NCBI GenBank assembly: GCA_017860375.1
Contig: JAGDMB010000001.1
Coordinates: 1 to 32,941, forward strand
Length of the DNA stretch: 32,941 nucleotides
DNA from: Bacteroidota bacterium
GTDB lineage: Bacteria; Bacteroidota; Bacteroidia; Bacteroidales; UBA10428
Reading direction: 5' to 3'
In this document: piece after piece, positions 9,541 to 28,130 of the stretch
Layout of the letters: each line of letters opens with the position of its first letter
How positions within the stretch are numbered: the stretch's first letter is position 1
The notes under the pieces: model-generated
Seen by the model: only the letters and a program-made list of their open reading frames with translations
What the model was told of the DNA's origin: nothing
Databases searched by the model: none
Position numbers and translations under genes: made by a program

Positions 9541-9746
9541 AGGGGAGAGGATCTCATTTTTCCGGGATCTTTGTTAAAAAGGAAACATTCTTGCCGCAAA
9601 TCAGTATAAGAATAAAATTTATTTTATTTATTAACATATAACTGTTAATTTCCATTTGTACGAATACAATATTTTTACTTATTTTACTTTTTATACATGA
9701 AGGCTGTCCGCTGTTCGTAAAAGTGAAAAGTAAAAGGGTAACGAAA

Positions 9747-10709: not shown

Positions 10710-10759
10710 AAAAATACTTAATTTTATCAAGATTGATTGTACTAGTTGTTATAGATAAA

Positions 10760-10767
10760 TACCTTTG
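10760..10767 (+). promoter_or_regulatory. TAccTTTG, a -7-like promoter motif ending 3 nt upstream of the porK/gldK ATG
   Basis: Exact TAnnTTTG match in the 61-nt porP-porK spacer. It could also be a chance match in AT-rich DNA. Confidence 0.25.
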
Positions 10768-10770
10768 ATT

Positions 10771-12108: not shown

Positions 12109-12136
12109 AATTCAATACATACTAAAAAAACATCGT

Positions 12137-13072
12137 ATGCCAAGTTTATCAGATATAGTTGAAAGCGCAGGTTGGCGAAAATTTATGTCCAAACTTTACG
12201 GACTTGGTGCTTCTGTAGTTATCACCGGCGCCCTGTTTAAAATCAACCATTGGAACGGGGCAACCGTGATGCTTGCTATCGGTATGTTCACGGAGGCAAT
12301 AATATTCTTCTTTTCCGCATTTGAACCCTTGCACCCTGAGCTCGACTGGACCCTGGTCTATCCTGAACTTTCCGGCATGACCGATCAGGATGAAATGGAT
12401 CAGATCCAGGAACTTGGTCCCGGCATCGGTGGCCGACCCCTGGAGCGGATAGAGAATATCCTCGGTGAATCCAGTATCAATGAGGATACGCTGAAGAATA
12501 TCGGCGTTGGCCTCGATAAATTGCACAAGGCAGCCGTCGGAATTGCCGATATTTCGGGAGCGTCAGTTGCCACCAAGGAGTTCCTTACCCACATACAGGC
12601 AGCCTCGGGTACCGTCAGCTCCATGAATGAAGCCTATAATTCCTCCGTGGGAGCCATTAAAGAATCGGCTTCAAATCTTGCCAGTGCATATTCCCAGTCT
12701 GCCAAACAGGTGGCTCAATCCGGTAATGAGGTGTCCAATACCTATATGCTCATCGCCGACACGATCAAGAACGAAAACCAGTTGCTTTCAAAGACAGGAA
12801 AGAGTTATGAAAGCCAGCTTGAAGCCCTCAACAAGAATCTTTCAGCCCTGAATTCGGTCTATGAGCTTCAGGTGAAGGAAAGCAATGATCATCTGAAAGG
12901 CGCACAACAAGTGTATGCTGGAGTGGAAGACATGATCCGCAAATTGAAGGATTCCGTGGATGAAACGAACCGCTATAAAGATGAAATCATGAAGCTAAGG
13001 GACAGTTTGTCCTCCCTCAACGGCATTTACGGCAATATGCTTTCTTCCATGAATGTTATGATTAACAAATAA
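12137..13072 (+). CDS. gldL: T9SS/gliding motor protein PorL/GldL
   Basis: Two N-terminal TM helices (LYGLGASVVITGALF and ATVMLAIGMFTEAIIFFFSAF) with an intramembrane Glu53 (codon 12293-12295). The C-terminal region is long and coiled-coil-like. Confidence 0.9.
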   Translation: MPSLSDIVESAGWRKFMSKLYGLGASVVITGALFKINHWNGATVMLAIGMFTEAIIFFFSAFEPLHPELDWTLVYPELSGMTDQDEMDQIQELGPGIGGRPLERIENILGESSINEDTLKNIGVGLDKLHKAAVGIADISGASVATKEFLTHIQAASGTVSSMNEAYNSSVGAIKESASNLASAYSQSAKQVAQSGNEVSNTYMLIADTIKNENQLLSKTGKSYESQLEALNKNLSALNSVYELQVKESNDHLKGAQQVYAGVEDMIRKLKDSVDETNRYKDEIMKLRDSLSSLNGIYGNMLSSMNVMINK

Positions 13073-13091
13073 GTACCTCAGGTAAAGACCC

Positions 13092-14759
13092 ATGGCCCAC
13101 GGCAAAGAGACTCCGCGACAAAAAATGATCGGTATGATGTACCTGGTGCTGACGGCCATGTTAGCCCTGAACGTATCGGTCAGTGTCCTAGATGCCTTTA
13201 AAATTATTGACGAAGGGTTGGAGAAAACACTCAAAACCATTGTCAATAAAAATAATGAAATATACAACGAATTTAGCAAGGCCTATGCCCTGAATCAGAG
13301 TAAGACGGCCAAATGGATGGAAATTGCGCAACAGGTACAACTGCGTTCGGACAGCCTTTATAATTACGTTCAGCGGTTAAAACTTAACGTGCTGAAAGAA
13401 GCAGAAAAGACCAATGCGAAAGTCAGCATCAAAGGGGATTCCATCTTCCGCGATAAAATAAAATCCACCACCAATTATGATACGCCGGGCAGGCTCATGA
13501 TCGGGAATGAACTCACGGAACGAAGTGAAGCCACCAAGCTGAGAAAGGCAATTGAGGATTACCGCAGTTACCTGCTCAGCCTTGTGCCGCCGATCAATAC
13601 AAAGCTGCGTGAATCTATCTCGAAAGGACTCGACACGGATCCTCCCTATTCGGAAAAGAAAATAAAAAAGCCCGAAGAAAGAACCTGGGAATACCACAAA
13701 TTCGGACACACTCCTCTTATGGGCTTCCTTGCCATTATGTCCTCCCAGCAGGTGAATATCCGGAATGCCGAATCGGAAGTGATCAACTACCTGTATTCAC
13801 AGATCAGCGCCGGTGAAGTGAAATTCAACGAACTTGAAGCGGTTGTCATTCCCCATTCCAATTATATTATAAAAGGGAACGAATACCAGGCCGACATTTA
13901 CCTGGCTGCCCGTGATACAACCCAGGATCCTGTTATCTGGATTGCAGAAGGAGTGAAAGAACCCTGGGTTGAAAAAACCGATGAGAATGGCAATACCTAT
14001 ATCGATAAGAGGGATGGAATTAATTACTCCCAACTCGAGATTGAGCATGGAAAAGGGAAAGGAGTTTTTAAACGTACCGGCTCTTCCCTGGGATTCAGGC
14101 AATGGGGCGGCATCATTGAAATTACAGGCCCCGGAGGCGAAGCCATACGGCGTCCTTTCAGCGCTGAATACCAGGTAGCCGAAGGAGGAGTGGTTGTTAA
14201 TCCTTCCAAAATGAATGTATTCTACACGGGAGTCGATAATCCCGTGGAAATTTCGGTGGCCGGTGTGGCCCCGAACAAAATCACTGCCGAAGCCACCAAT
14301 GGTTCACTGGTACCCAGCGCAGGCAATTACATCATGCGTCCGAAAAGGCCGGGGAACTCATTGATCACGGTGTATGCCGAACTGGATGGCAGAAAAAGAG
14401 CGGTGGGCTCCAAGGAATTCCGCGTTAAACCCGTACCCGATCCCTATGCCACCATTGGCGGCAAAAAAGGAGGCGGAATCAACAAAAACGAACTCATCGC
14501 ACAGACCGGCGTGGCCGCGGTTATGCCGCCTGACTTTGAATTCGATCTTACCTTCACTGTCACGGAATTTACCGTTTTTTCGGTTGTGCAGGGGTTTGTA
14601 AAACAATACACCTCCAAAAACAACCGTTTTACCGAGGAACAAAAAAACCTGATCAATACATTGGCCAAAGGAGCGCCCATCTATATCCAGGATATTAAAG
14701 CCGTGGGCCCCGATGGATCCATACGGCCCTTGTCTACCATAAATTTCAGATTAAATTAA
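13092..14759 (+). CDS. gldM: T9SS/gliding motor protein PorM/GldM
   Basis: The N-terminus TPRQKMIGMMYLVLTAMLALNVS matches the highly conserved GldM/PorM TM segment, including Arg9 (codon 13116-13118). The periplasmic region is large. Confidence 0.93.
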   Translation: MAHGKETPRQKMIGMMYLVLTAMLALNVSVSVLDAFKIIDEGLEKTLKTIVNKNNEIYNEFSKAYALNQSKTAKWMEIAQQVQLRSDSLYNYVQRLKLNVLKEAEKTNAKVSIKGDSIFRDKIKSTTNYDTPGRLMIGNELTERSEATKLRKAIEDYRSYLLSLVPPINTKLRESISKGLDTDPPYSEKKIKKPEERTWEYHKFGHTPLMGFLAIMSSQQVNIRNAESEVINYLYSQISAGEVKFNELEAVVIPHSNYIIKGNEYQADIYLAARDTTQDPVIWIAEGVKEPWVEKTDENGNTYIDKRDGINYSQLEIEHGKGKGVFKRTGSSLGFRQWGGIIEITGPGGEAIRRPFSAEYQVAEGGVVVNPSKMNVFYTGVDNPVEISVAGVAPNKITAEATNGSLVPSAGNYIMRPKRPGNSLITVYAELDGRKRAVGSKEFRVKPVPDPYATIGGKKGGGINKNELIAQTGVAAVMPPDFEFDLTFTVTEFTVFSVVQGFVKQYTSKNNRFTEEQKNLINTLAKGAPIYIQDIKAVGPDGSIRPLSTINFRLN

Positions 14760-14780
14760 GCACACATAATAATTATCCGA

Positions 14781-15638
14781 ATGAAAAGAGCTGTTTTTAT
14801 CCTTGCGGGATTTGCCTTGGCTGCGGCCGCTTCACTACCATTACGGGCCCAGGTGACCGAGGTATACGCACGTGAACATATCGCGAACAAATCACCTATC
14901 CCGTATGCTTACCTCCGTGAAGCCGATGTCTTTTGGGCTAAGGATATGTATCGCATCATCGACCTTAAACAAAAGCAGAACCAGCCGCTTTATTATCCGA
15001 CGCGGCCGATCGCTGACCGTATCAACCTTGTGGATCTTATTCTTAAAGGAGTGGATACAGAAGGCATCAGGGCATTCTCATCCGACGACGCCCTCAATGA
15101 ATTTACCATTCCCCTTACCAAGGAACAGATTGACGTCGCCTTTGATGCCGGATTGGATACCATAAGAGTAGTGGATGTCAATACCAACGAACCCGTGGAA
15201 TCAGTCGTTCCCCGGCCCCGTAAAACGGAAGAAGTAAAACAGCTCCTCATAAAGGAAAAATGGTTTTTCGACCGGAACCATTCCGTGATGAGCGTCAGAA
15301 TAATCGGTATTTGCCCCTTGCGTGTCTATAACCGGCTCGACGACCAGGGAATGCCTACCGACATCATTTACAGGGAAAAGACCTTCTGGGTGTATTTTGA
15401 TGAAATACGTCCCCTTCTCTCAAACCACGAAATTTTTAACCGGAACAACGATGCACAAAGGATCTCGTTTGACGATTTCTTTATGCAGCGCAGATTCAAC
15501 AGTTATATATGGGGCGAGTCCAATGTCTATGACAACCGGTTTATCAATTCCTATTCCGTTGGTGTCGATGCCCTGCTGGAAGCAGACAGAATCAAGAACT
15601 GGCTTTTCGATGTCGAACACGATCTGTGGGAATATTAA
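14781..15638 (+). CDS. gldN: T9SS ring protein PorN/GldN
   Basis: 285 aa with a signal peptide (AASLPLRAQV). It sits directly after gldM, and its size and composition are typical of GldN. Confidence 0.85.
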   Translation: MKRAVFILAGFALAAAASLPLRAQVTEVYAREHIANKSPIPYAYLREADVFWAKDMYRIIDLKQKQNQPLYYPTRPIADRINLVDLILKGVDTEGIRAFSSDDALNEFTIPLTKEQIDVAFDAGLDTIRVVDVNTNEPVESVVPRPRKTEEVKQLLIKEKWFFDRNHSVMSVRIIGICPLRVYNRLDDQGMPTDIIYREKTFWVYFDEIRPLLSNHEIFNRNNDAQRISFDDFFMQRRFNSYIWGESNVYDNRFINSYSVGVDALLEADRIKNWLFDVEHDLWEY

Positions 15639-15656
15639 TCCTTGCCCATGAACCAT

Positions 15657-15684
15657 AAAAGCTCCTGGTAAGGGGCTTTTTTTT
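15657..15684. terminator. Rho-independent terminator after gldN, possibly bidirectional with ung
   Basis: aaaagctcc (15657-15665) pairs with ggggctttt (15672-15680) in a 9-bp stem with one G-U pair. The loop is tggtaa, and the T-run continues to 15684. Confidence 0.75.
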
Positions 15685-15730
15685 GTATCCCTGTTTCCTC
15701 CGGCCAGAAGCAAAGCATGGGCGGATGACC

Positions 15731-16411
15731 TTATTCAACAGACCAGTCAATTTCCGGAAGACCATGCCGGCGCAATATTTCGTTGGTCCTTGAGAAATGC
15801 CGGCATCCGAAAAACCCATTGTAGGCTGAATAGGGAGAAGGGTGAGCGGCCTTCAGAATATAATGCTTCTGCGTGTCAATGAGCGATTCCTTATCCTGTG
15901 CAAATTTGCCCCAAAGCAAAAAGACCAGGCCAACCCTTTGTTTTGACAACTGGCTGATGACCGCATCGGTAAAGATTTCCCATCCCTTTTTCTGATGCGA
16001 TCCGGCCTGATTGGCCCTAACGGTAAGCGTGGCATTTAACAGGAGGACGCCCTGCCGTGCCCATTTTTCAAGATTCCCGTGCCTGGGCATCGGAATTCCC
16101 AGATCCTCGTTTATCTCCTTGAAAATGTTTACGAGGGAAGGCGGGGAGGATATGCCCCGGGGGACAGAAAAGCAAAGACCATGAGCCTGTCCCGCTCCAT
16201 GATAAGGATCCTGCCCGATAATGACAACCCTCACTGCAGAAAAAGGAGTCAAATTAAAAGCATTGAAAATCAGGCTTCCGGGAGGATACACCGTGAACCT
16301 CTGTTTTTCCTCTACAAGAAATTCCTTCATGCTTTTAAAATAGGAGGAATTGAACTGTTCCTGCAGTATTTCCTTCCAGCTTTCTTCAATTTGTGGTTTG
16401 ACTTCCGTCAT
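15731..16411 (-). CDS. ung: Uracil-DNA glycosylase
   Basis: GQDPYHGAGQAHGLCFSV and AAHPSPYS motifs of family 1 UDG. Confidence 0.95.
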   Translation of the reverse strand: MTEVKPQIEESWKEILQEQFNSSYFKSMKEFLVEEKQRFTVYPPGSLIFNAFNLTPFSAVRVVIIGQDPYHGAGQAHGLCFSVPRGISSPPSLVNIFKEINEDLGIPMPRHGNLEKWARQGVLLLNATLTVRANQAGSHQKKGWEIFTDAVISQLSKQRVGLVFLLWGKFAQDKESLIDTQKHYILKAAHPSPYSAYNGFFGCRHFSRTNEILRRHGLPEIDWSVE

Positions 16412-16418
16412 GTCCGAA

Positions 16419-18500
16419 TTAATTCTTTAACATGATCCGGGCAATATTGGTGGCATGGCTTCCGATATTCTTAAAGGAAGTGATGATCTCAAGATGGGTC
16501 TTGCTGCTGTCAATCGATTCTTCCACCTCCTGCTTGAGCCGCTGGTAATGTTGTTTTTCAAAATCAATATACAGATCCCGGAATTTCTCATATTTTGATT
16601 TCATGATGATGGCTTTGGCACGGCTAAATTCCCTGAACATGCCATAGGAATAATACAGCAGCTTCAGGGTCTGCAGATGAAAATACTGGATCTCTTCCTT
16701 TCCCGCCACTGAAAAAACAAAGTCCGAACGACACCACCACCGGGCCTTGCCTCCCAGCGATGAAGAAATAATATCGCCGATCTGTTCAAATTCATTTACC
16801 GCATACATCATAAAATACACTTCCTCCACCAGGTTCGTCGAAATGTCCTTTCGCGATATTTGAACAAGGTATGCATTTATTTCATCGCGCAAAAAGTTTA
16901 TTTCTGCTACCCTTTTGGCGATTTTGTCAATTATCCCGTATTTCTTTTCGATAAAAGGAGTAATAATTTCTTCCGCCATCCGGTGCGTGACCTGAATCAT
17001 CCTCAGAATTTCCTGTTTTGCTACCGCCAGTGCTAAATGAGGGGCATTGAGAAGCTTGGCATCCAGGTACCAGGTTTTGAGTGGTTCCGCCTTTTCTTCA
17101 CGGGCAGGCAACAACCGGGAGATCAACCGGGCAAAAGCCCGGGTGAAAGGCAGAAACAGCAAAGCGATGATGAGGTTATAGATTGTGTACGCATTGGCAA
17201 TTTGCCTTGCCATGATGGTAGAAGAAAAGGAAGGGGTCGTTTCAACGGAGGCACCATAGAGGGAGATCCCCTCAACCAGTCTGACGAGCTGGGGAATAAA
17301 CCATATCATGATCAGGGCTCCTGTTGTCTTGAACACGGCATGCGCCAGTGCCACCTGTTTTGACTCACGCGATAAACCGAAACTTGCAACAAAAGCGGTA
17401 ACGCAACTTCCCAGGGAGGCTCCGATCAGAAGAGGGACAGCGGCAGAAAGGGAAAGAAGATGCTGCGATCCGAGTATGATGAGTATTCCTACGAAAGCAC
17501 TGCTGCTTTGAAGGGCAGCGGCCAGAAGGGCCCCGACCAGGATACCCGGGACAGGCTTTTCAAGGGTCGTGAAAAGAGAGAGAATCCCTTTCATCGATTG
17601 CAGGGGTTCCATAGCCTGCGCCATAATATACATTCCGAAGAAAATAATGCCAAAACCCATAAAGGCATAGCTGATATCCCGGTATTTTGGCTTTTTAAAT
17701 GCCGTGTAAAAAAGAAAACTGACACCAAGGATCAGCAGCGCATAATCAGAGAGCCTGAAAGCAATAATCTGGGCCGTTATGGTTGCCCCCACCGAAGCCC
17801 CCAGTATAATCCCGATAGTCTGTGAAAACCGCATCAGCCGTGAATTGACAAAACTTACAAGCATGGCTGTAGTGGCACTGCTGCTTTGAACCATGACCGT
17901 CATAACGATCCCGGCCAGGAATGCTTTCAGGCGGTTATCGGTCAACCGTTCGAAAACACTTCGCATCTTTTCCCCGGCTGACTTTTGAAGTCCGTCGCTC
18001 AGCATCTTTAACCCAAGCAGAAAAAACGCAAGCCCGCCCAGCAGACCGGCGGTCATAAGAATAATCCAGGATTTCTTCCGGGCGGTGGCTTTAAATATCA
18101 GGCTGTCCGGTTCAGACAACGATTCAATTTTTGCCGCACAGAGGTAATCTCCGGCCTTGCTGCCCAAATGCAGCGTTGTTCCTGCCTTTCCTTCCGCATC
18201 CGTAAATACGGTATAATCTTCAAAAAATGCACCGGAGGAAGGGCCGGGTTCGGAAAGAATGACAAAACGAACCGGGAATCCTGAAACCGGATTGCCTGCA
18301 TCGTCCAGAACCTTTACACAAAATGGCGCACCAAGCTTTTGACCGGCTTTTCCGCTGGGATGAATCGTTCCATTATCCGTAAGGGAATTTACTTCCGTCG
18401 TGGTCAGATGATAGTGAACAGCAGGGACCTGACCCGTGAGATTCAACGTCCTGAACAGGAAAACCAGAAGCAACAGCCGCCAGGGGATTGCGCCATTCAT
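16419..18500 (-). CDS. Na/Pi cotransporter family protein with a PhoU-like C-terminal domain and an extra N-terminal secreted Ig-like domain
   Basis: Two NaPi-II repeats carry the QSSSATT and QSSSAFVG motifs, followed by a helical PhoU-like C-terminus. The first ~140 aa are a signal peptide plus a Big-like beta domain (VKVLDDAGNPVSGFPVRF...VFTDAEGKAGTTL). Confidence 0.85.
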   Translation of the reverse strand: MNGAIPWRLLLLVFLFRTLNLTGQVPAVHYHLTTTEVNSLTDNGTIHPSGKAGQKLGAPFCVKVLDDAGNPVSGFPVRFVILSEPGPSSGAFFEDYTVFTDAEGKAGTTLHLGSKAGDYLCAAKIESLSEPDSLIFKATARKKSWIILMTAGLLGGLAFFLLGLKMLSDGLQKSAGEKMRSVFERLTDNRLKAFLAGIVMTVMVQSSSATTAMLVSFVNSRLMRFSQTIGIILGASVGATITAQIIAFRLSDYALLILGVSFLFYTAFKKPKYRDISYAFMGFGIIFFGMYIMAQAMEPLQSMKGILSLFTTLEKPVPGILVGALLAAALQSSSAFVGILIILGSQHLLSLSAAVPLLIGASLGSCVTAFVASFGLSRESKQVALAHAVFKTTGALIMIWFIPQLVRLVEGISLYGASVETTPSFSSTIMARQIANAYTIYNLIIALLFLPFTRAFARLISRLLPAREEKAEPLKTWYLDAKLLNAPHLALAVAKQEILRMIQVTHRMAEEIITPFIEKKYGIIDKIAKRVAEINFLRDEINAYLVQISRKDISTNLVEEVYFMMYAVNEFEQIGDIISSSLGGKARWWCRSDFVFSVAGKEEIQYFHLQTLKLLYYSYGMFREFSRAKAIIMKSKYEKFRDLYIDFEKQHYQRLKQEVEESIDSSKTHLEIITSFKNIGSHATNIARIMLKN

Positions 18501-18624
18501 TCTCGTTTGGTATACTTTTTCAGGTTAAAGATAATCAATAAAGTGTTAACATACGATTGCCTCTGATGGATGGAAGAAGGCCGTGATGTTGGTAAAATCC
18601 CGGACAGGATAATGGTTAATTTCC

Positions 18625-18632
18625 TACCTTTG
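18625..18632 (+). promoter_or_regulatory. TAccTTTG candidate -7 promoter element for the 18721-24604 operon
   Basis: Exact TAnnTTTG match, 89 nt upstream of ATG 18721, in the divergent intergenic region. Confidence 0.35.
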
Positions 18633-18720
18633 AAAATAAGGGCCCCGAATGGAACTGACCTTTCGCTTCCACTGGTTTCTTTCATCCGGAAGAATCCCCA
18701 ATGTTGAACGAACATTGCAT

Positions 18721-21492
18721 ATGTTGAAAAAAAAATTACTATTTGGCCTTATTCCGGCATTCATTGTTCTTCTCCTTCTTTTTTTCTTCCTTAAAAGGGA
18801 TGCAAAAATTGGTCCGGGTGAACCGTTGCGGGCAATACCGGTGGATGCATCGGCGATCATTAAAATTAACGATCTGGAAGCGGTTCTGCAGAAAATACAC
18901 AAGGAGAGCGGCATCTGGGATGAGTTGAAGAATACTTCCTCCTTCCGGCGCCTGGCATACCAGATGCAGTTTCTCGATTCGGTTCTGATCTCCCTGCCGG
19001 ATGCACGGCAGTTGCTGCTCAATAATCCTTCTTACCTTTCGCTTCATTATGCCGGAAAAGATAAAATCGGGTTTCTTCATGTTTACCGCGTACCGAACAA
19101 CCTCAGCGAACGCAAAATCCATACACTGATTTCCCGGTTCGTGGAGAACAAGGGAACCATAACCGAACGGAATTATGACGGCAAAAAGGTGTTTGATGTG
19201 AGACTCCTGAATACGGAAAGAATAAACAACTTTACCTACGCGATTTACAAGGACTTGTTCATGCTGAGTTTTTCCTCTCTCTTGCTTGAGGATGCGTTAC
19301 GGCAGATCGACGGTGATGTGAGCATTACGGATCAGGAAGGATTTAACCAGGCCTTTTCTACCGCGGGGAAAAATGTGAATGCCAACCTCTTCCTGAATTT
19401 CAGAAATCTTCCGAAGAGCTTGTCTGTGGGAATAAACAATGAATACAAAGCCGAAATCCGTTCGTTTAATACATTTGCAGACTGGGGTGAACTGGATGCA
19501 AACATCATGCGTGATGTTTTTTTGCTCAACGGATTTATCCTGGCATCAGATTCGGGTAACTGCGCCGCATCGGTCTTTGCACATCAGAGCCCGCAAAAGA
19601 TCACAGCCGATGAAATTTTGCCCTCTTCCGTTGCCGCTTGCTTTGTACTTTCGGTTTCGGATCCGGTCCGGTATTTCTCCAGCTATCATGAATACCTGAA
19701 AGGCCTGGGCAAGTACAATCAGTATTCCAGGAGCCTTGATGTGCTTGAAAATACCTATGAAATTGATTTCCTCAAAGAATATACAGACGTGTGGGATAAC
19801 GAGATATCGGTTGCCTTTGATGCCGCCAGCGGTGAAAAGGGACCCACTTCCTACCTGCTGCTTAAGGTAAAAAGCCAGAGTTTTGCGGAAGAAAGATTTG
19901 CTGCGATCGTAAAAAAAATGGCGGAAAAAGAATCCGCTTCACCGGAGAAATATACTTCGGTGTACCGGATCGACAATGAATTGTCCTATAAAATATACCA
20001 ACTCCCCATTCGGAAACTAACCGGAAAAATATTCGGTGAACTCTTTACCAACATTGATGAACATTATTTTACCTTTATCGAAAACTACCTTGTTTTCTCC
20101 GATTCCCCGGCCTCGCTGGGAAAACTGCTGCATCAGGTTGTGCTCAACAAAACCCTGGTCACCAATCAGGCTTACAAAGATTTTAAAGCCAACCTGAGCC
20201 CGAAATCCAATGTGTATTTTTATGCCAATATCGGAAAATCCAATGTGGCTTTTTCCAAATATTTGTCCGCCCCGCTTTTGAAAAGCTGGAATGAGAATAT
20301 CGCCGCCTTTCAAAAGATACAGGTATTCGGATTCCAGATGTATTCCAGCAACGGCATGCTGTATTCCAATGTGTTTCTGAAACATTTCACCGATTTCAAA
20401 GATCAGCCCCATACGGTATGGGAAAGCCAGCTCGATACGACCATTGACATCAAACCTGTTTTCACCCTGAATCATGCAACACGCCAAAATGAAGTTTTTG
20501 TGCAGGATGAGCGCAATACCATTTACCTTATCAATCAGGCGGGACGTATTTTGTGGAAAATACCGCTAAACGAGAAAATAACCAGCGAGATCTTTCAGGT
20601 CGATTACTATAAAAACGGTAAACTGCAGCTGCTGTTTAGCTCCCCTCATTACCTCCACCTGATCGACCGCAACGGAAATTATGTGGAAAAATACCCCGTT
20701 AAGCTGAGATCTCCGGCTTCCAACCCGCTGGCCGTTTTTGATTATGATAAGAACAAGGACTACCGTATGTTCATTGCAGGCACTGACCGAAAGGTTTATG
20801 CGTATACGGTCGACGGATCGCTTGTGAAAGGCTGGAATTTCAGCAGTACCGAAAGCGAGGTTGCGCAACCCATTAACCATTTCAGGGTGGGCGATAAGGA
20901 TTATCTTGTTTTCGGCGACCGGCTGAAAACTTATATTCTTGATCGGCGAGGCAATGAAAGAGTAAATGTGACGGCCTATTTTCCCAAATCGGAGCTCAAT
21001 AACTATGTGTTCGACAATCCAGGCAGAACGGCAGATGCCCGCATTGCAATCACCGATACCGCGGGACTGATCTATTTTATTTATTTCAATGGAAACCATA
21101 CCACGCTGTATATGGGAAAATATTCCGGCAGCCATTTCTTCGATTACAAAGACATGGACGGGGACGGCAAAAAGGAATACATTTTTCTTGAAGGCACCCG
21201 GCTGCTGGTATTCAAAGAAAACAAAAAGCTGCTGTATGAATTTGATTTTAACCACCCCATCGTATTTAAACCTGCCTATTACAATTTTGCACAAAACGAT
21301 AAAAAACTGGGCATCGTTTCACGGGAGGATAACCTTATTTATATGATAAACAATGACGGCAAGGTGTATAAAGGATTTCCCCTGAGGGGAAATTCTCCCT
21401 TCAGCGTGGGCTATTTTGGTGAAAATACGTCAACTTTTAACCTGATTGTGGGCAGCAATGATAACTTTTTATACAATTATACAGTACAATAG
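18721..21492 (+). CDS. Uncharacterised membrane-anchored protein (923 aa) with an N-terminal TM helix, a large unassigned middle region and a C-terminal FG-GAP-like 7-blade beta-propeller
   Basis: MLKKKLLFGLIPAFIVLLLLFFFL is a single TM anchor. From about 20416 the C-terminal ~350 aa show repeated blade motifs (IYLINQAGRILWKIPL, LHLIDRNGNYVEKYPV, VYAYTVDGSLVKGWNF, IYMINNDGKVYKGFPL) and a DMDGDGKKEY loop. The ORF track start at 18649 adds 24 non-signal residues, so ATG 18721 is preferred. Confidence 0.8.
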   Translation: MLKKKLLFGLIPAFIVLLLLFFFLKRDAKIGPGEPLRAIPVDASAIIKINDLEAVLQKIHKESGIWDELKNTSSFRRLAYQMQFLDSVLISLPDARQLLLNNPSYLSLHYAGKDKIGFLHVYRVPNNLSERKIHTLISRFVENKGTITERNYDGKKVFDVRLLNTERINNFTYAIYKDLFMLSFSSLLLEDALRQIDGDVSITDQEGFNQAFSTAGKNVNANLFLNFRNLPKSLSVGINNEYKAEIRSFNTFADWGELDANIMRDVFLLNGFILASDSGNCAASVFAHQSPQKITADEILPSSVAACFVLSVSDPVRYFSSYHEYLKGLGKYNQYSRSLDVLENTYEIDFLKEYTDVWDNEISVAFDAASGEKGPTSYLLLKVKSQSFAEERFAAIVKKMAEKESASPEKYTSVYRIDNELSYKIYQLPIRKLTGKIFGELFTNIDEHYFTFIENYLVFSDSPASLGKLLHQVVLNKTLVTNQAYKDFKANLSPKSNVYFYANIGKSNVAFSKYLSAPLLKSWNENIAAFQKIQVFGFQMYSSNGMLYSNVFLKHFTDFKDQPHTVWESQLDTTIDIKPVFTLNHATRQNEVFVQDERNTIYLINQAGRILWKIPLNEKITSEIFQVDYYKNGKLQLLFSSPHYLHLIDRNGNYVEKYPVKLRSPASNPLAVFDYDKNKDYRMFIAGTDRKVYAYTVDGSLVKGWNFSSTESEVAQPINHFRVGDKDYLVFGDRLKTYILDRRGNERVNVTAYFPKSELNNYVFDNPGRTADARIAITDTAGLIYFIYFNGNHTTLYMGKYSGSHFFDYKDMDGDGKKEYIFLEGTRLLVFKENKKLLYEFDFNHPIVFKPAYYNFAQNDKKLGIVSREDNLIYMINNDGKVYKGFPLRGNSPFSVGYFGENTSTFNLIVGSNDNFLYNYTVQ

Positions 21493-21495
21493 AAC

Positions 21496-23160
21496 ATGCT
21501 GAAGACCCGTACCATGAAAACACCGTTTATAAAAGTTGCTGCGCTGTTTTTGGGAATGACAATTCTGTTGGGATGGGCATGCACCGAATTGTACGATTTT
21601 GAAAAACTCTCGGGCATGATGCAGTATGATCCCGAGATCGATGGCCCTCTTGTAAGGGGTTCGCTTACCGCTGAAGACCTTTTCGCAAGATGGGATTCGC
21701 TGATGGAGAATAACGGGGATACCGTTGTCCTTGCTTTCCGGGAAGACTCCCTGTTTTATTTCAACGTGGAAGATTTAAATGAAATCCCTCCGCAGGATAC
21801 CCAGGAATTTAATCTTATTCCCAGCTATACCCTTACCAGCGCTGAAATGCCGGACAGCATATACATTGACTCTACGGACATCTATGGATTTACCCTTGCT
21901 GACAACATGCGGATTGACAGCCTGTACACCAATGACGGATTCCTCATGATCGAGGTCAGTTCCTCTTTCAGGCATGCCGGCAACCTGACAATCCATTGTC
22001 CCGAAATCGTTATCGAAGGGCAGTTGTTTCAAAAAACAATCCCGATCAGCAATACCGATGGCACATTTTACACTAAATTGCTCTATCCCCTCACGGATGC
22101 AAAGATCTACCCCGATAATTCCATTCCGGGTGAACCCTTCATTCAGAATATTTATCATCTGGTGCTTTACAGGAATCCCGGACAAGGTATAGAAGCAGGC
22201 GACAGGGTACGCATTAACTATTCCATTGTTGAACTCGATAAATTTGAAACCATCTTCGGTTATGGCGGTAACCGTATTTTTTCCGAGGATACTGTTTTTT
22301 CAACAGGGCTGGAAGCGATCGAAGGACTTACGGGAACCTTTTCCGTTATCGATCCGCGCATCAATTTCAACTACGATAATTCATTTGGATTGCCTGTCGG
22401 ACTTGATCTTTACATACAAGGCCATTTCAGCGACGGGAATACGGTTACCCTCGACCCTCCCCTGCAGGTTATGACTGCTTCCGATAATTACCTGCAACCC
22501 CATGTGGAAGGATCGCTGTCGTACAACCGCACAAACATACCCAACATTGGTGAATTGCTGACCTTTCCAGTTCCTGACAGTATTACGGTGGGAGGTCAGG
22601 CAAACGCCAACCCGGGAGTAACCGATGCCAGGAATTTTATACTGAAAAACAGCAAGGTCCTGATCGATCTTGAAATAAAAATACCCCTGGCATTTTCTGC
22701 TGACCTTCAGCTGCGGGACACCTTTGCGATGGCGATCGAAAAGCCCGAAGCAGTGGATTATATCGAATATGCAAAGCTGCATTACCGCATACGAAATGAG
22801 TTCCCTGTTAACCTTGAACCCTACCTTATCTTATACGATTCCATTGCCGACGTGAACCGCGATACGCTGCTGCTGGCTGAATCCCTTTCTGATCCTTTTA
22901 TCAAAGCGGCCCCGGTGGATGCCAATGGAATATCCATACCCTCGCAGGTGGAGGATTATACCGGTACCGTTGAACTGGATGAGGAACTGATGGATCATTT
23001 TTTTCACGATACCAACAAGCTGATCATCGTGGGCGGTTTCAGCTCCTACCAAACCGGCAATGTCATCATCCTTACCACCTACCGGTTTGACTTCCGGTGC
23101 AACCTTGAGGCAAAAATCCATTACGTGACCAATATGAATGACAAAACCGATGATCAGTAA
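21496..23160 (+). CDS. Uncharacterised lipoprotein (554 aa)
   Basis: Signal peptide with lipobox (FLGMTILLGWAC). It starts 3 nt after the stop of the previous gene. The composition is beta-rich, with no catalytic motif recognised. Confidence 0.75.
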   Translation: MLKTRTMKTPFIKVAALFLGMTILLGWACTELYDFEKLSGMMQYDPEIDGPLVRGSLTAEDLFARWDSLMENNGDTVVLAFREDSLFYFNVEDLNEIPPQDTQEFNLIPSYTLTSAEMPDSIYIDSTDIYGFTLADNMRIDSLYTNDGFLMIEVSSSFRHAGNLTIHCPEIVIEGQLFQKTIPISNTDGTFYTKLLYPLTDAKIYPDNSIPGEPFIQNIYHLVLYRNPGQGIEAGDRVRINYSIVELDKFETIFGYGGNRIFSEDTVFSTGLEAIEGLTGTFSVIDPRINFNYDNSFGLPVGLDLYIQGHFSDGNTVTLDPPLQVMTASDNYLQPHVEGSLSYNRTNIPNIGELLTFPVPDSITVGGQANANPGVTDARNFILKNSKVLIDLEIKIPLAFSADLQLRDTFAMAIEKPEAVDYIEYAKLHYRIRNEFPVNLEPYLILYDSIADVNRDTLLLAESLSDPFIKAAPVDANGISIPSQVEDYTGTVELDEELMDHFFHDTNKLIIVGGFSSYQTGNVIILTTYRFDFRCNLEAKIHYVTNMNDKTDDQ

Positions 23161-24604
23161 CAGGAGAATACAAAAACACCGGAATTACTTTCTATGGGTC
23201 GTGGTATCGGTTTCCTGTGTTTTTTCGCGGGTGACGGGACAGGAAAGCAATACCCTGTATTTTATGAAAGGTGTTCCCCAGTCGTATCAGGTAAACACGG
23301 CTGCCCAGCCGGAATGCAGGTTTTTTCTCGGGTTTCCTGCTCTTTCCCCTTTACAGGTCTTCACCGAGAATTCAGCCTATTCATTGAAAGATATTGTCTT
23401 CCCCCTGGGAGATTCACTGGTTACCTTCATGCATCCCGAGGCGGATAAAAATGAATTTCTTAATAACCTGGCCCCGGTGAATACCCTCCAGACATACGGA
23501 AGTGCCAACCTGTTTTCCGTGGGATACCAGATGGAAACTTACTATTATACTTTCGACCTTTCGCAAAAAACCTATACCCGTTTCGTATACAACGATGACG
23601 TATTGGATTTATTACTGACGGGCAACAAAAGGGGCGATCGGTTTGATTTCAGCAATACCAATGTGGATTTGACCAGCTACCTCGAAGCGGCAACCGGTAA
23701 TTTCCGGAAAATAAATGACAGGCTTACTGTCGGTTCACGGATCAAAATCTTGTTTGGTGAGGCAAATGTTTCTACGGTCAATAAGGATCTTTCGCTGATC
23801 ACCGATGAAGACTGGACGATCCGGTCGGATATTAAGATCCGGCTCTCCGTGCCGGGATTGAGTATTCCCGTGAATGAAAACGGAGAAATAAGCCTTGATT
23901 CCATTGAATTTGACCCACCCCATACCACCACTGAAATTCTGCAGACAGCCTTCGGCAATATCGGTCTCGGGATTGACCTGGGATTGCATTATAAACTGAC
24001 AGACAAGATTATGCTTTCGGGAAGTTTGCTTGACCTGGCGGGAATCCGGTGGAGTGCAAATACCTATTCGTTCAGTCAGAATGCATCGTATGTGTACAAG
24101 GGGATTGAAATCGATCCTTCCGATACGGCCGGTGCAACCCAAAACTTCTTTGACAGCCTGAGCACTGTTTTTCGCTTTGCCACTGCCCTCGATCCTTATT
24201 ATACCATGCTGCCGTTGAAGCTTTATGTGGGAGGCACCTACCAGGTAATGGATCAGATAGGGTTCGGCATTCTTTCAAGGACTGAGTACTATAAGAACAG
24301 GCTGAGGGAACAGCTGACCCTTTCCGCCAATTTTTCACCGCTGAGGATTATCACCTTTTCGTTGAGTTATACCCTGTTTAATAACGCGTATAACAATTTC
24401 GGATTCGGATTTTCCGCAAGGTTCGGACCTTTTAATATGTACCTGATCTCGGATAACATTTCAACCCATTATGTGGTGGATCAGTCAACCCATGTGGTGT
24501 TGCCCTATGACAACAGGGTCATGAATTTCAGGGTTGGTCTGAACCTGGTATTCGGTTGCCTGTCCGAAAAGAAGAAAGCAAGTGACCTGCCGCTGGTATA
24601 TTAG
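23138..24604 (+). CDS. Uncharacterised outer-membrane beta-barrel-like protein (488 aa) with a PorP/SprF-like N-terminal motif
   Basis: It overlaps the previous gene by 23 nt. The signal peptide is FLWVVVSVSCVFSRVTGQ, followed by LYFMKGVPQSYQVNTAAQP. Alternating hydrophobic strands run throughout, and the C-terminal residue is aromatic (..LPLVY). Confidence 0.7.
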   Translation: MTKPMISNRRIQKHRNYFLWVVVSVSCVFSRVTGQESNTLYFMKGVPQSYQVNTAAQPECRFFLGFPALSPLQVFTENSAYSLKDIVFPLGDSLVTFMHPEADKNEFLNNLAPVNTLQTYGSANLFSVGYQMETYYYTFDLSQKTYTRFVYNDDVLDLLLTGNKRGDRFDFSNTNVDLTSYLEAATGNFRKINDRLTVGSRIKILFGEANVSTVNKDLSLITDEDWTIRSDIKIRLSVPGLSIPVNENGEISLDSIEFDPPHTTTEILQTAFGNIGLGIDLGLHYKLTDKIMLSGSLLDLAGIRWSANTYSFSQNASYVYKGIEIDPSDTAGATQNFFDSLSTVFRFATALDPYYTMLPLKLYVGGTYQVMDQIGFGILSRTEYYKNRLREQLTLSANFSPLRIITFSLSYTLFNNAYNNFGFGFSARFGPFNMYLISDNISTHYVVDQSTHVVLPYDNRVMNFRVGLNLVFGCLSEKKKASDLPLVY

Positions 24605-24605
24605 G

Positions 24606-24640
24606 TTTGAATATTTGAAAGTTCGAAAATTTGAAGGTTG
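24606..24640. repeat. Array of TTTGAA-type hexamers with ~8-bp period (TTTGAAta TTTGAAag TTCGAAaa TTTGAAgg)
   Basis: Direct reading, immediately after the stop codon at 24602-24604. It has the same hexamer and the same period as the element at 3469-3546. Confidence 0.7.
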
Positions 24641-24662
24641 AGTCCACTCCGCAAAATATTTC

Positions 24663-24670
24663 TATCTTTG
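24663..24670 (+). promoter_or_regulatory. TAtcTTTG -7 promoter motif ending 4 nt upstream of ATG 24675
   Basis: Exact TAnnTTTG match. The spacing implies a leaderless or nearly leaderless transcript for the small membrane protein gene. Confidence 0.35.
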
Positions 24671-24674
24671 CAGC

Positions 24675-24935
24675 ATGACAGGGTTTATCCGGATCATATT
24701 ACTGCTTGTCCTCTTCTATTATCTGACACGGATCATTACACGGTATTTGGTGCCGTTTCTTTTTGGCAGTTACGTGAACCGGAAAATGAATGATTTCCAG
24801 GGCAGATCTGGCAGACAGCAGAAAACCCATAACCGGAAGAAAGAAGGAGAGGTCACGGTGGACTATACTCCGCAGGAAGGGAATAAAAACAAAGACCGCG
24901 GGGAATATGTTGAATATGAAGAGATTAAGGATTAA
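24675..24935 (+). CDS. Small membrane protein (86 aa), DUF4834-like
   Basis: N-terminal TM helix FIRIILLLVLFYYLTRII, a basic linker, and a C-terminal GEYVEYEEIKD tail. I recall this pattern from a small Bacteroidota-specific family, but the family name is from memory and unverified. Confidence 0.65.
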   Translation: MTGFIRIILLLVLFYYLTRIITRYLVPFLFGSYVNRKMNDFQGRSGRQQKTHNRKKEGEVTVDYTPQEGNKNKDRGEYVEYEEIKD

Positions 24936-25714
24936 TAGTTTTCGGGATCCCTGATTTCATCCGTTGTCATTGCCTTGATCTTCTTGGCAAAATTCGAGGC
25001 AAAGACGAAGTCATTCAGGTTCACATCCTCGCTGTTGAGGATATCTTCCTTTGTTCCCTCCCAGCACTTTCGTCCTTCATGGATAAAGACCACTTTTTCG
25101 CCGATTTCCATTACCGAATTCATATCGTGTGTATTGACAATGGTGGTAATATCAAATTCCTTTGTGATTTCGCTGATCAGGTCATCAATCAGCAGCGCGG
25201 TTATGGGATCCAGGCCCGAATTGGGCTCATCGCAAAAAAGGTATTTTGGATTCTGAACGATGGCGCGGGCAATGGCCACCCTTTTTTTCATGCCTCCGCT
25301 TAACTCACCGGGATAAAGGGCATTCTCATTTTCGAGATTCACCCGTTTCAGACAAAAATTTACCCGGTCTGTTTTATCCCCCGGTGTCATGTCAGAGAAC
25401 ATGTTCAGGGGGAACATCACGTTTTCTTCAACGGTCAGGGAGTCAAACAGGGCACTGCCCTGAAACAGCATTCCGATCTCACGGCGAAGGTTTTGCCTTT
25501 CCTTGAAATTCATTTTCAGAAAGTCGCGTCCGTCAAAAAACACGGACCCTTTATCGGCTTCGTGAAGGCCCACGATGCATTTCATCAGAACCGTCTTTCC
25601 CGAACCGCTTCGTCCTATGATTAGATTTGTCTTCCCTTTTTCAAAACTCACGGAGATGTCATCGAGAACGCTTTCTCCGGAAAAGGACTTGTACAGGTCT
25701 TTCACTTCTATCAT
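24932..25714 (-). CDS. mlaF: ABC transporter ATP-binding protein, MlaF-like
   Basis: The start MIEVKDLYKSF is at 25714, where ATG overlaps the mlaE stop as ATGA. It has Walker A GRSGSGKT and the signature LSGGMKKR. The 349-aa ORF in the track is an artefactual 5' extension into mlaE. Confidence 0.9.
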   Translation of the reverse strand: MIEVKDLYKSFSGESVLDDISVSFEKGKTNLIIGRSGSGKTVLMKCIVGLHEADKGSVFFDGRDFLKMNFKERQNLRREIGMLFQGSALFDSLTVEENVMFPLNMFSDMTPGDKTDRVNFCLKRVNLENENALYPGELSGGMKKRVAIARAIVQNPKYLFCDEPNSGLDPITALLIDDLISEITKEFDITTIVNTHDMNSVMEIGEKVVFIHEGRKCWEGTKEDILNSEDVNLNDFVFASNFAKKIKAMTTDEIRDPENY

Positions 25715-26454
25715 CAGGCCAGCATTAATTGGGTGAGAATAACATCGGTCATGAGAATCAGGATACTGCTGAATACAACACCCCGTGTGCTTGCCCGACC
25801 GACTTCGAGTGCACCACCTTTTACATTGTAACCCTGAAAGGCGGAGACGGAGGTAATGATGAAGGCATAAAAAACGGTCTTGATCAGCGCATAAACAATA
25901 TAAAACGGTATAAAGTAATATTGGATGCCATATAAATAATCGGCGGAGGGAAGCGCACCCGTGATAATACAGGCCATCCACCCGCCGAAAAGTCCGACCG
26001 ACATGGAGATAGCCGTAAGGAAGGGATTGAATACCATGGTGGCGATTATCTTGGGTAAAACAAGGTAACTGGCGGAATTGACTCCCATCATCTCGAGGGC
26101 ATCTATCTGTTCGGTAATGCGCATATGCCCGATTTCTGACGCGATATTGGAGCCCACCTTACCGGCCAGTATAAGGCCTACCATGGTAGAGGAAAATTCC
26201 AGCAGCATGGTATCCCTGGCCGTAAGGCCGATGATATAAAGAGGCAGCAAAGGATTTTCAAGGTTGTACCGGGTTTGCAGGGTAATTACAGCCCCGATGA
26301 AAATTGAGATAATGATCACTATTCCGACGGAATTAAATCCCAGGCTCTCCATTTCCAAAATGGTTTGCTTCAGATAGATCCGTGCTTTCTCGGGACGGGA
26401 AAACACCCTGGACATGAAAATAACATACCGGCCGAATACGGAAAGAAAGCGCAT
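25714..26454 (-). CDS. mlaE: ABC transporter permease, MlaE family
   Basis: 246-aa polytopic membrane protein with the typical MlaE/Ttg2B layout (EMESLGFNSVGIV.., ITEQIDALEMMG). Confidence 0.88.
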   Translation of the reverse strand: MRFLSVFGRYVIFMSRVFSRPEKARIYLKQTILEMESLGFNSVGIVIIISIFIGAVITLQTRYNLENPLLPLYIIGLTARDTMLLEFSSTMVGLILAGKVGSNIASEIGHMRITEQIDALEMMGVNSASYLVLPKIIATMVFNPFLTAISMSVGLFGGWMACIITGALPSADYLYGIQYYFIPFYIVYALIKTVFYAFIITSVSAFQGYNVKGGALEVGRASTRGVVFSSILILMTDVILTQLMLA

Positions 26455-26467
26455 ATTTATTTTTGTT

Positions 26468-26475
26468 CAAAATTA
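26468..26475 (-). promoter_or_regulatory. TAatTTTG candidate -7 promoter element for mlaEF
   Basis: Plus-strand caaaatta is an exact minus-strand TAnnTTTG, ending 13 nt upstream of the mlaE ATG. A second match (TAaaTTTG) lies at 26536-26543. Confidence 0.35.
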
Positions 26476-26609
26476 ATGATATCGTACTAAAATCAAATAA
26501 TCTATTCACTTAATCTACATATATACCGCTCCGATCAAATTTATTTCAGGAATACACCTATTTTACTTATTTTCGCTGGAAAGTCAGGAATCTTTATATC
26601 CATGATCCT

Positions 26610-27707
26610 ATGAACAGAAGTCATTATTGTGTTATTATGGCCGGCGGCATTGGAAGCCGGTTCTGGCCGTTAAGCCGAACAAAAAAACCCAAACAGTTTC
26701 TGGATATTCTCGGAACCGGAAGAACATTGCTGCAGCAAACTTTCGACAGGCTGAAGAAAGTATTCCCGGTAGAGAATATCTTCATCGTTTCCAACGAAGA
26801 TTATAAAAATCTGATAGTAAAACAATTACCGGAACTTAAAGAAAACCAGATCCTCCTTGAACCCATGCGGAGAAATACGGCTCCCTGCATTGCCTATGCC
26901 AATTACAAAATCCAGCTTGAGGATCCCAATGCCATCATCCTTGTGGCGCCTTCCGATCATATTATTCTTAAAGAAAACGATTTTCTGGATGTGGTGAAAA
27001 AAGGCCTTGATTTTGTTGCCACCAACGACAGTTTGCTTACCCTGGGTATTCAACCCAACAGGCCTGAGACCGGTTACGGATACATTCAGATAAACGGGGA
27101 CAGGAGCAAGGTACTGGATCTGAATTCGAGCATCCGCAAAGTGAAAACCTTCACGGAAAAGCCCAATCTCGAAATGGCCGAAGTATTCCTGAGAAGCGGA
27201 GATTTCTTCTGGAATTCAGGGATGTTCCTGTGGTCATTAAAATCCATTGTCAAAGCATTTGAGGCATACCTGCCTGAAGTCAACACCCTTTTTAAGGAAG
27301 GCCTTGAGTTTTATAATTCACCGCGCGAAGCCGAATTCATTGCAAAAACCTATCCAAACTGCCGGAATATATCCATTGACTATGGCATTATGGAGAAAGC
27401 CGAAAATGTGCATGTGCTGTGCTCCGATTTTGGATGGTCCGACCTGGGAACCTGGGGTTCCCTTTATGACACCCTGAATAAAAACCAGGACAACAATGCC
27501 ATCTCAGGCTCCAATGTACTGACCTACAACACCCAGAATTGCATCATCAACGTACCGGATGACAAATTAACGGTCATCCATGGTCTGGATGATTACATTA
27601 TCGTTGAATCTGAAAATATCCTATTGATTTGCCGTAAACAGGACGAGCAAAAGATAAAGAATTTTGTCAACGATGTAAAAATTGAGAAGGGGGAGGATTT
27701 TATCTGA
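26610..27707 (+). CDS. manC: Mannose-1-phosphate guanylyltransferase
   Basis: N-terminal MAGGIGSRFWPLSR (GGxGxRxWPLSR motif). At 365 aa it has no isomerase domain. Confidence 0.88.
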   Translation: MNRSHYCVIMAGGIGSRFWPLSRTKKPKQFLDILGTGRTLLQQTFDRLKKVFPVENIFIVSNEDYKNLIVKQLPELKENQILLEPMRRNTAPCIAYANYKIQLEDPNAIILVAPSDHIILKENDFLDVVKKGLDFVATNDSLLTLGIQPNRPETGYGYIQINGDRSKVLDLNSSIRKVKTFTEKPNLEMAEVFLRSGDFFWNSGMFLWSLKSIVKAFEAYLPEVNTLFKEGLEFYNSPREAEFIAKTYPNCRNISIDYGIMEKAENVHVLCSDFGWSDLGTWGSLYDTLNKNQDNNAISGSNVLTYNTQNCIINVPDDKLTVIHGLDDYIIVESENILLICRKQDEQKIKNFVNDVKIEKGEDFI

Positions 27708-27731
27708 GATTAAACGGAATTTGCAGTCCGC

Positions 27732-28037
27732 TTATTCCTCTTCGTCGGCAACATCTTCGCCGATCTCAAGGTTTTCGAAATTATCAAATTCATCAAAGGA
27801 GGAAGATTCAATATCATCGTCGGATTCGGAAGCCGTACTTTTGGGCATTTTAATCAGGAAATACGTATCCTCCGTTTCGTAAGGCAGGGCCACTTCAATT
27901 TCTCCGCGGGTATTGGTGAAAGTAATAAGATGATCATCAAACCCGTCGGGATATTTTTCTTTTATCCGTTCGACCATTTCGTCCGGAAGCTGCTCGTACG
28001 ATTTTATTATCCTTTTCTTTGCTACGTTCTTTGCCAC
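27732..28037 (-). CDS. Hypothetical small protein (101 aa) with a polyacidic C-terminal tail
   Basis: GTG start. The folded-looking N-terminal ~65 aa are followed by ASESDDDIESSSFDEFDNFENLEIGEDVADEEE. No motif recognised. Confidence 0.55.
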   Translation of the reverse strand: MAKNVAKKRIIKSYEQLPDEMVERIKEKYPDGFDDHLITFTNTRGEIEVALPYETEDTYFLIKMPKSTASESDDDIESSSFDEFDNFENLEIGEDVADEEE

Positions 28038-28130
28038 GACTTTGCAGGTGATATTAACGTTGTAAGTATGGGGGTAAATTTATATAAATTTTATTCTTAA
28101 TAGCAAACTATATTTGGTAAATATTTTTTT

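Follow-up and report, generated by a model that had tools for sequence, protein, structure and literature searches.

The stretch of DNA analysed here, which we refer to as the window, comprises 32,941 nucleotides (nt) of contig JAGDMB010000001.1 from a Bacteroidota bacterium of the order Bacteroidales (assembly GCA_017860375.1). It harbours an operon of three consecutive plus-strand genes for envelope proteins: gene 1 (G1; 18721-21492, 923 aa), gene 2 (G2; 21496-23160, 554 aa), which encodes a lipoprotein, and gene 3 (G3; 23138-24604, 488 aa), which encodes a predicted outer-membrane β-barrel of the DUF5723 family. An earlier reading of the same letters (the original prediction) had described these genes as tightly packed, and it was accurate in this respect: all three are real open reading frames (ORFs) within 18721-24604, and both the 3-nt gap between G1 and G2 (21493-21495) and the 23-nt overlap of G2 with G3 (23138-23160) are exact. 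The longest ORF for G1 runs from 18649 to 21492 (947 aa); we favour the internal ATG at 18721, since the homologues of G1 are 924-931 aa long and begin MxxKK. A second ATG in G3, at 23150, would leave an 11-nt overlap with G2 and yield the 484-aa form present in the database. In the distant relatives L001-L004, G1 and G2 are separated by 1-24 nt, and the G2/G3 junction varies between an 11-nt overlap and a 29-nt gap.

The original prediction also placed a promoter-like motif upstream of the operon. The motif, TACCTTTG, is indeed present at 18625-18632 on the plus strand, 89 nt upstream of the G1 start, and it matches the Bacteroidota -7 consensus; however, a single match of this kind is insignificant. 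The pattern TANNTTTG occurs 18 times in the whole window against 23 occurrences expected by chance; because it is not enriched, this lone match is not evidence of a promoter but a mere candidate. Scans for sigma-70-type promoters and for terminators returned results at or near chance level. As for the distance of about 3 kb to the core genes of the type IX secretion system (T9SS), this holds as well: gldN ends at 15638, about 3.1 kb from the operon, and the interval is filled by uracil-DNA glycosylase (UDG) and Na/Pi transporter genes on the opposite strand.

The DUF5723 barrel and its lipoprotein neighbour

G3 is a member of DUF5723 (PF18990), with a match that extends over model positions 2-376 of 376 (E 4.5e-90; 303.5 bits versus a cut-off of 26.8); the same model matches all 48 aligned relatives. 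G3 also carries a signal peptide (aa 1-34) that leaves Gln35 at the mature N-terminus, a residue kept in 42 of the 48; both count among its barrel-like features, and the original prediction had likewise noted a signal peptide and a barrel-like pattern. Downstream of the signal peptide the family has a strongly conserved, plug-like N-terminal segment, Q..NTLYFM.GVPQ....NPA, in which the NPA motif (N in 48/48, P in 47/48 and A in 39/48) lies at a distance of some 19 residues from the mature N-terminus. FadL channels typically carry an NPA motif in their N-terminal hatch, and it is essential to their transport activity (PMC8407342). The window's own G3 is the sole member of the alignment to read NTA at this position (aa 53-55, nt 23294-23302), the others being near-invariant. 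Beyond DUF5723 itself, members of the family yield weak matches to TraF_2, Porin_4, Toluene_X/FadL and OMP_b-brl_3; that to Toluene_X was found in one of the 48 members (E 1.4e-3), and comparison of the G3 profile with TbuX gave E 0.26.

At its other end, G3 has a basic tail that terminates in DLPLVY. Some DUF5723 relatives (P0143, P0149, P0152, P0153 and P0159) are barrels fused to thrombospondin type 3 (TSP3) repeats and an OmpA peptidoglycan-binding domain, which places the C-terminus of G3 in the periplasm. In Flagellimonas (L009), an OmpA-family gene comes after the G1-like gene; this neighbour and the OmpA fusions are hints of a connection to the cell wall in some lineages. A literature search on DUF5723 produced two incidental mentions, and none under PF18990: a Brachyspira member has been modelled by others as a 16-strand barrel, and another member was found in vesicles of P. 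gingivalis. Sequence searches with G1, G2 and G3, and with their family profiles, against solved structures gave nothing significant.

In G2, the lipobox named in the original prediction has proved sound: its cysteine, C29 (nt 21580-21582), is kept in 42 of 45 family members, and the stretch that immediately follows it stays conserved as far as the distant relatives. The occurrence of acidic residues behind the cysteine serves as a criterion for calling surface-exposed lipoproteins in Bacteroidota (PMC12578637); in the form applied here, the rule asks for a lipobox cysteine and then two or more acidic residues in the next six or so positions. At least two Asp or Glu residues occur within six positions in 40 of the 42 cysteine-bearing family members, among them the window's G2, which reads C-TELYDF. 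As judged from this signature, G2 is probably exposed at the cell surface instead of facing the periplasm.

The remainder of G2 resembles little that has been named. A structural model (predicted local distance difference test score, pLDDT, 85.8) presents the mature protein as all-β, with several jelly-roll or sandwich domains, and Foldseek aligned it with generic jelly rolls and with 4h3w, a secreted Parabacteroides protein of uncharacterised function on which our search found no paper. No Pfam or NCBIfam family matches G2, nor does any match consistently among its 45 aligned relatives. The family is nevertheless large: a profile search of 1.84 billion representative proteins, clustered at 50% identity, returned 4,886 clusters at E<=1e-3 and 2,224 at E<=1e-30, and all of those that we looked up are unnamed metagenome proteins.

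A predicted inner-membrane anchor, DUF3352 and a propeller in G1

Three parts can be recognised in G1: a predicted N-terminal signal-anchor helix (aa 2-26, nt 18724-18798), an α/β domain of the DUF3352 family (aa ~35-555, nt 18823-20385) and a C-terminal β-propeller (aa ~565-922, nt 20413-21486). The hydrophobic stretch that underlies the first of these is the only one in the protein, in agreement with the single N-terminal transmembrane helix described originally; it is 19 residues long (6-24) and has no cleavage-type site, and it therefore fits an uncleaved inner-membrane anchor. The match to DUF3352 (PF11832) covers residues 132-552 and model positions 136-533 of 536 with 29.3 bits, above the curated cut-off of 26.8; 24 of 32 aligned G1 relatives match as well, the best at E 1.2e-27. 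In the AlphaFold model of G1 (pLDDT 87.7), this domain spans 520 residues with about 20 strands and 20 helices, and its two halves are weakly similar repeats (hhalign probability 77%). Profile comparison detected no relation of the DUF3352 domain to G2 or G3, and a literature search under DUF3352 and PF11832 found nothing.

The propeller had originally been assigned seven blades. We count eight, because the sequence repeats itself eight times (near residues 601, 644, 692, 737, 784, 828, 873 and 917) and because the best structural matches are eight-bladed: the best Foldseek matches of the G1 model are Cake8, an eight-bladed design (TM-score 0.78), and BamB (TM-score 0.63-0.66). PQQ_2 and FG-GAP_3 of Pfam match this region weakly, and every propeller match falls below its curated cut-off.

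Bearing in mind these assignments, the expectation that the three proteins would lead only to families of unknown function was correct: DUF3352 and a propeller for G1, nothing for G2, and DUF5723 for G3. Homology links them to no characterised system; the original prediction, too, could assign them to none, and its further claim that they lack catalytic, nucleotide-binding and T9SS sorting domains agrees with our Pfam and NCBIfam searches.

Conservation and modularity of the operon

We followed the three families through 19 species-representative genomes, all from uncultured Bacteroidales, together with four further contigs. The locus scans used narrower subsets of the G2 and G1 alignments (A5, A7), and none was seeded with G3. 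In this set the order [UDG-, NaPi-] G1 G2 G3 DUF4834 mlaF- mlaE- manC gldN-M-L-K-porP- is constant wherever the contig is long enough; G1-G2-G3 occurs in all 17 genome loci that are long enough to show the triad, and the order from G1 to G3 holds down to 25-32% identity. Altogether, more than 40 related loci keep this order of the three genes.

A more varied picture emerged when metagenome contigs were scanned with the G1 alignment, which returned 80 loci, 73 of them evaluable. The full G1-G2-G3 triad is present in 13 of the 73, and in a further three the contig ends after G2. Two loci have G1 and G2 with no barrel nearby: in L108 and L113, the latter from a human gut metagenome, a 908-aa G1 relative is followed by a G2-like lipoprotein, with no DUF5723 gene within 9 kb. 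G1 is followed directly by DUF5723 in three (L079, L080 and L105). In 15 loci G1 is followed by DUF4834 without G2 or G3, and 10 of these continue into gldA. The remaining 37 loci have G1 with none of these families adjacent, and in 15 of them porP-gldKLMN is immediately downstream on the same strand.

Conversely, a G2-like lipoprotein gene precedes distant DUF5723 genes in loci without G1 (L007, L008 and L032; hhalign probabilities for the G2-like identity of 99.7, 97.4 and 95.8%, respectively), and L031 encodes a 529-residue protein, with a transmembrane helix and DUF3352 only, directly upstream of a DUF5723 gene and without G2. In all lineages that we examined, the barrel gene is directly preceded by a lipoprotein gene. 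Distant relatives of G1, G2 and G3 sit among housekeeping genes. The DUF5723 barrel, which pairs with a lipoprotein, with a DUF3352 protein or with both, is thus the hub of these pairings; and since the families recur together in many genomes, we consider this to be a real conserved envelope module and not an artefact. Whether the three genes stay adjacent was a check that the original prediction had proposed: the triad is kept in related genomes, but the arrangement is modular and not a fixed triad.

A fourth gene belongs to this discussion. Downstream of G3, on the plus strand, a small gene (24675-24935, 86 aa) encodes a DUF4834 protein (Pfam E 1.2e-9) with a hydrophobic helix at its N-terminus and the motif GEYV[DE]YEE at its C-terminus; a separate TATCTTTG stands ahead of the gene at 24663-24670. 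The DUF4834 gene is kept after G3 in related loci. It probably belongs to the neighbourhood as a fourth member and acts as a partner to G1; it may even be the true partner of G1, since it follows G1 relatives directly in the 15 loci that lack G2 and G3. A literature search on DUF4834 found nothing.

Comparison with characterised envelope systems

Among the hallmarks of Bacteroidota are surface-lipoprotein/barrel complexes (PMC12578637, PMC12611786), and by analogy the closest parallels to the operon appear to be BamG-BamH, the closest of those characterised, and PorP with its cargo. BamG-BamH resembles what we propose for G3 and G2 in that a FadL-like outer-membrane barrel is the platform for a surface lipoprotein: the BamG barrel grips the conserved lipidated N-terminus of BamH, which has acidic residues after its cysteine, and the paralogues BamG2/BamH2 are Bt1785/Bt1786, with consecutive locus numbers (PMC12578637, PMC12611786). 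There are also differences. BamG is a Toluene_X/FadL member with 14 strands, whereas G3 belongs to DUF5723, among whose 48 aligned members Toluene_X matched one, weakly; and the β-barrel assembly machinery (BAM) has no inner-membrane-anchored partner like G1. BamH was absent from the top 50 structural matches of G2, and the G2 and G3 profiles matched no chain among the Protein Data Bank sequences, in which the presence of the BAM entries 9HIS, 9HJ3 and 9HJM is unconfirmed.

The T9SS barrels PorP, PorV and PorQ have anchoring roles comparable to that of BamG. PorP/SprF, PorV and PorQ are likewise outer-membrane barrels encoded beside the surface protein that they hold; furthermore, they have an N-terminal segment with an NPA motif (the window's PorP reads QFMFDHISINPAYAG), and the porP-gldKLMN cluster is near the operon. 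On the other hand, PorP/SprF shows no detectable homology to DUF5723, and G2 is a lipoprotein and not a T9SS cargo with a sorting domain. PorP/SprF proteins serve to anchor surface proteins and have no known transport activity.

FadL, TodX and TbuX have, like the DUF5723 family, an N-terminal plug segment with a conserved NPA motif, but their similarity to DUF5723 is below significance, and classical FadL channels work without a lipoprotein or an inner-membrane partner. The C-terminal domain of G1 superposes on BamB, one of the eight-bladed propellers of the PQQ/FG-GAP type, and on eight-bladed designs; BamB differs in being a stand-alone periplasmic lipoprotein, whereas the propeller of G1 shares its chain with a transmembrane anchor and a DUF3352 domain of 520 residues. 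Several other systems were considered and set aside. Pfam found no MlaD (MCE) or MlaA domain in G1, G2 or their relatives, and the Mla/MCE system is represented only by the convergent neighbours MlaE and MlaF; SusC/SusD uptake was rejected because there is no Plug, TonB_dep_Rec or SusD match and G2 is all-β; the S-layer pair Bt1927/Bt1926 of B. thetaiotaomicron was rejected as a 100-kDa lipoprotein with an 8-strand barrel; and the Lpt system does not fit.

A proposed surface-lipoprotein/barrel complex tied to the inner membrane

What is observed is the structure of the genes, their family assignments, the predicted topology signals and the recurrent pairing of the families. Building on these, we tentatively propose, at a confidence that stops just short of calling it probable, that the operon encodes a surface-lipoprotein/barrel complex of the Bacteroidota type that is tied to the inner membrane by G1. 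In this arrangement G3, as a FadL-like outer-membrane barrel, would be both hub and anchor; G2 would be flipped to the cell surface, its conserved lipidated N-terminal segment held by the G3 barrel, and its jelly-roll domains, displayed at the surface, would form the binding (working) part. G1 would be anchored by its helix in the inner membrane, and its DUF3352 domain and propeller would cross the periplasm to reach the periplasmic face or the tail of G3; the DUF4834 protein would probably be the inner-membrane partner of G1. We infer physical contacts among the three proteins from these features, and the function of the unit in the same manner: since the unit lacks both an enzyme and an ATPase, it would serve passively, as a trans-envelope tether or conduit, and not as an energised pump.

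An envelope-spanning complex had been suggested from the outset, and it is still the best reading, a plausible one to which the modular co-occurrence of the families lends support; three aspects have changed. The system is modular; G2 looks like a surface lipoprotein, so that the layout becomes inner membrane and periplasm, then barrel, then surface; and there is precedent, the module being best described as a variant of the surface-lipoprotein/barrel theme of Bacteroidota.

Several observations weigh against the proposed complex. G1 is found without an adjoining G2 or G3 in 52 of the 73 evaluable metagenome loci (about 70%), albeit 15 of the 52 have the porP-gldKLMN arrangement, and there G2 and G3 may lie beyond the fetched DNA; because pairs of G2 and G3 also occur without G1, G1 may serve a separate function. 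The acidic export signature of G2 is a rule of thumb. When the whole G1 model was submitted to Foldseek, only propellers were returned and the DUF3352 fold matched nothing, so the role given to G1 is a guess from topology and gene neighbourhood. Finally, a D-x-P-[LM]-[VIL] tail on the barrel, which we considered as a docking peptide for G1, occurs throughout the 21 triad loci of the first set that could be read, and five non-triad barrels lack it; yet it is also missing from distant barrels that adjoin G1 (L058, L074, L078, L079, L080 and L105), for which reason we rejected it as a general rule, and the D-x-P-L-V form is kept only in closer lineages.

Flanking genes and the gliding apparatus

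The gene order of the window is porP/sprF-gldKLMN, UDG(-), Na/Pi transporter(-), G1-G3, the small DUF4834 ORF, mlaF-mlaE and manC. The genes porP/sprF-gldK-gldL-gldM-gldN (9723-15638, plus strand; Pfam) form the T9SS/gliding core and are outside the operon. An mlaF-like ABC ATPase gene (about 24932-25720) and an mlaE permease gene (25714-26454), both identified by Pfam and NCBIfam, are on the minus strand and so convergent with the operon; this pair has no adjoining MCE/MlaD gene, and its convergent arrangement is kept in all related loci. The Na/Pi cotransporter, which has PhoU domains (16419-18500, minus strand), possesses a signal-like segment at its N-terminus and, as a weak match, the Ig-like domain Big_1 (residues 61-127); such an extracytoplasmic addition is unusual in that family. 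A block of ~12 kb from UDG to manC (15640-28130) is inverted in the window relative to its flanks, gldN on one side and homoserine dehydrogenase on the other, when set against every related genome found (L011, L013 and about 20 other loci); no inverted repeats flank it. A second type of inversion, in other lineages, places G1 directly upstream of porP-gldKLMN.

These surroundings bear upon another possibility: that the module, or at least G1 and DUF4834, is an accessory of the gliding/T9SS machinery. In one version, it would be a periplasm-spanning adaptor that links the outer-membrane unit of barrel and surface protein to the GldKLMN or GldAFG apparatus. Of the 80 metagenome G1 loci, 28 have a gld or porP gene within 9 kb, in three arrangements; distant relatives have none. 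The first arrangement (15 loci) places G1 directly upstream of porP-gldK-L-M-N and on its strand; in the second, the order is G1-DUF4834-gldA (10 loci, and L030, in which the GldA model TIGR03522 scores 396 bits); in the third, that of the window's clade, the triad is ~3 kb from gldN, and the gld neighbourhood survives local inversions. However, only one inversion separates the first arrangement from the third, and there are therefore at most two independent associations with gld genes. The proteins themselves also argue against this idea: G1-G3 have no match at E<=1 to a Gld, Por or Spr family of Pfam or NCBIfam, the two databases gave no T9SS C-terminal sorting domain either (Por_Secre_tail type A, or type B), and the G3 profile is unrelated to the window's PorP/SprF (hhalign probability 1%). 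Nor do the neighbourhoods of remote relatives fit, as distant G1 relatives are beside genes for cysteine synthase-like, ROK kinase, DXP synthase and prolyl-tRNA synthetase proteins, and distant G2/G3 pairs have housekeeping neighbours and no gld genes nearby. Moreover, DUF5723 occurs in Brachyspira, a spirochaete that is not known to have a T9SS. We regard a gliding/T9SS accessory as possible but unlikely. Closely related, and somewhat more doubtful in our estimation, is the view that G1 and DUF4834 constitute, together with the DUF5723 barrel and a lipoprotein of the G2 type, a hitherto unrecognised trans-envelope system of Bacteroidota. This would couple the unit of barrel and surface lipoprotein to the inner membrane, and it would either work with the gliding/T9SS apparatus or offer a dedicated route for the surface placement of lipoproteins.

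The gldA-type loci share further features: a G1-like gene, DUF4834, gldA and a ROK kinase gene follow one another in L030, L057, L059, L061, L063, L065, L066, L068, L083, L090 and L091, and most loci of this type have, 3-4 kb further along and on the opposite strand, a PorP/SprF-like gene and a gene for a protein of >1,100 aa, which resembles a T9SS adhesin pair.

Transport, translocation and inherited gene order

The plug-like segment of G3 invites a different explanation, in which the operon mediates TonB-independent uptake or export of a hydrophobic or amphipathic compound: G2 would capture it at the cell surface, G3 would pass it through a lateral gate of the FadL type, and the periplasmic DUF3352 domain of G1 would receive it at the inner membrane. 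The near-invariant NPA hatch motif of DUF5723, which is essential for transport in FadL (PMC8407342), would accord with this, as would the weak matches to Toluene_X/FadL and TbuX and the proximity of the lipid transporter genes mlaFE. Against it, the FadL matches are below threshold (one of 48 members; TbuX E 0.26), an NPA motif also stands at the N-terminus of the window's PorP/SprF, and the mla neighbourhood is absent from distant pairs; in addition, we identified no lipid-binding fold in G1 or G2. We judge uptake or export to be improbable.

That a lipoprotein gene so regularly precedes the barrel gene could alternatively mean that G3 is a dedicated translocator or assembly factor for the surface placement of G2, in the manner of Slam and its adjacent substrates, with G1 as a periplasmic delivery factor; how surface lipoproteins of Bacteroidota cross the outer membrane is, after all, unsolved (PMC12578637). 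One barrel per lipoprotein is equally expected of a stable complex, though, and G3 has no homology to Slam/DUF560; hundreds of surface lipoproteins are exported in Bacteroidota without such a partner. We consider this explanation very unlikely. The least probable in our view, by a shade, is that adjacency reflects inherited gene order and no joint function: the whole 20-kb region is syntenic in the clade, including the unrelated UDG, Na/Pi transporter and manC genes, and G1 often has no adjoining G2 or G3, but the same families are adjacent in varied combinations and contexts at 20-30% identity, with very short gaps or overlaps across lineages.

Implications for the Bacteroidota envelope

Surface-lipoprotein/barrel complexes dominate the outer membrane of Bacteroidota, and it is still open how they are assembled and by what means they are joined to the remainder of the envelope. 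To this theme the module described here adds a large lipoprotein family that has no Pfam or NCBIfam model, with a DUF5723 barrel as its regular partner, and an inner-membrane-anchored partner that is absent from the surface-lipoprotein/barrel systems with which we compared it. If the bridging role of G1 proves false, there is still a well-defined, conserved operon of unknown function. If instead G1 does bridge the periplasm to the barrel, this would be an envelope link of a kind new to Bacteroidota, and the repeated occurrence of G1 next to gldA and porP-gldKLMN would single it out as a concrete candidate for an accessory of gliding and the T9SS that has yet to be assigned.

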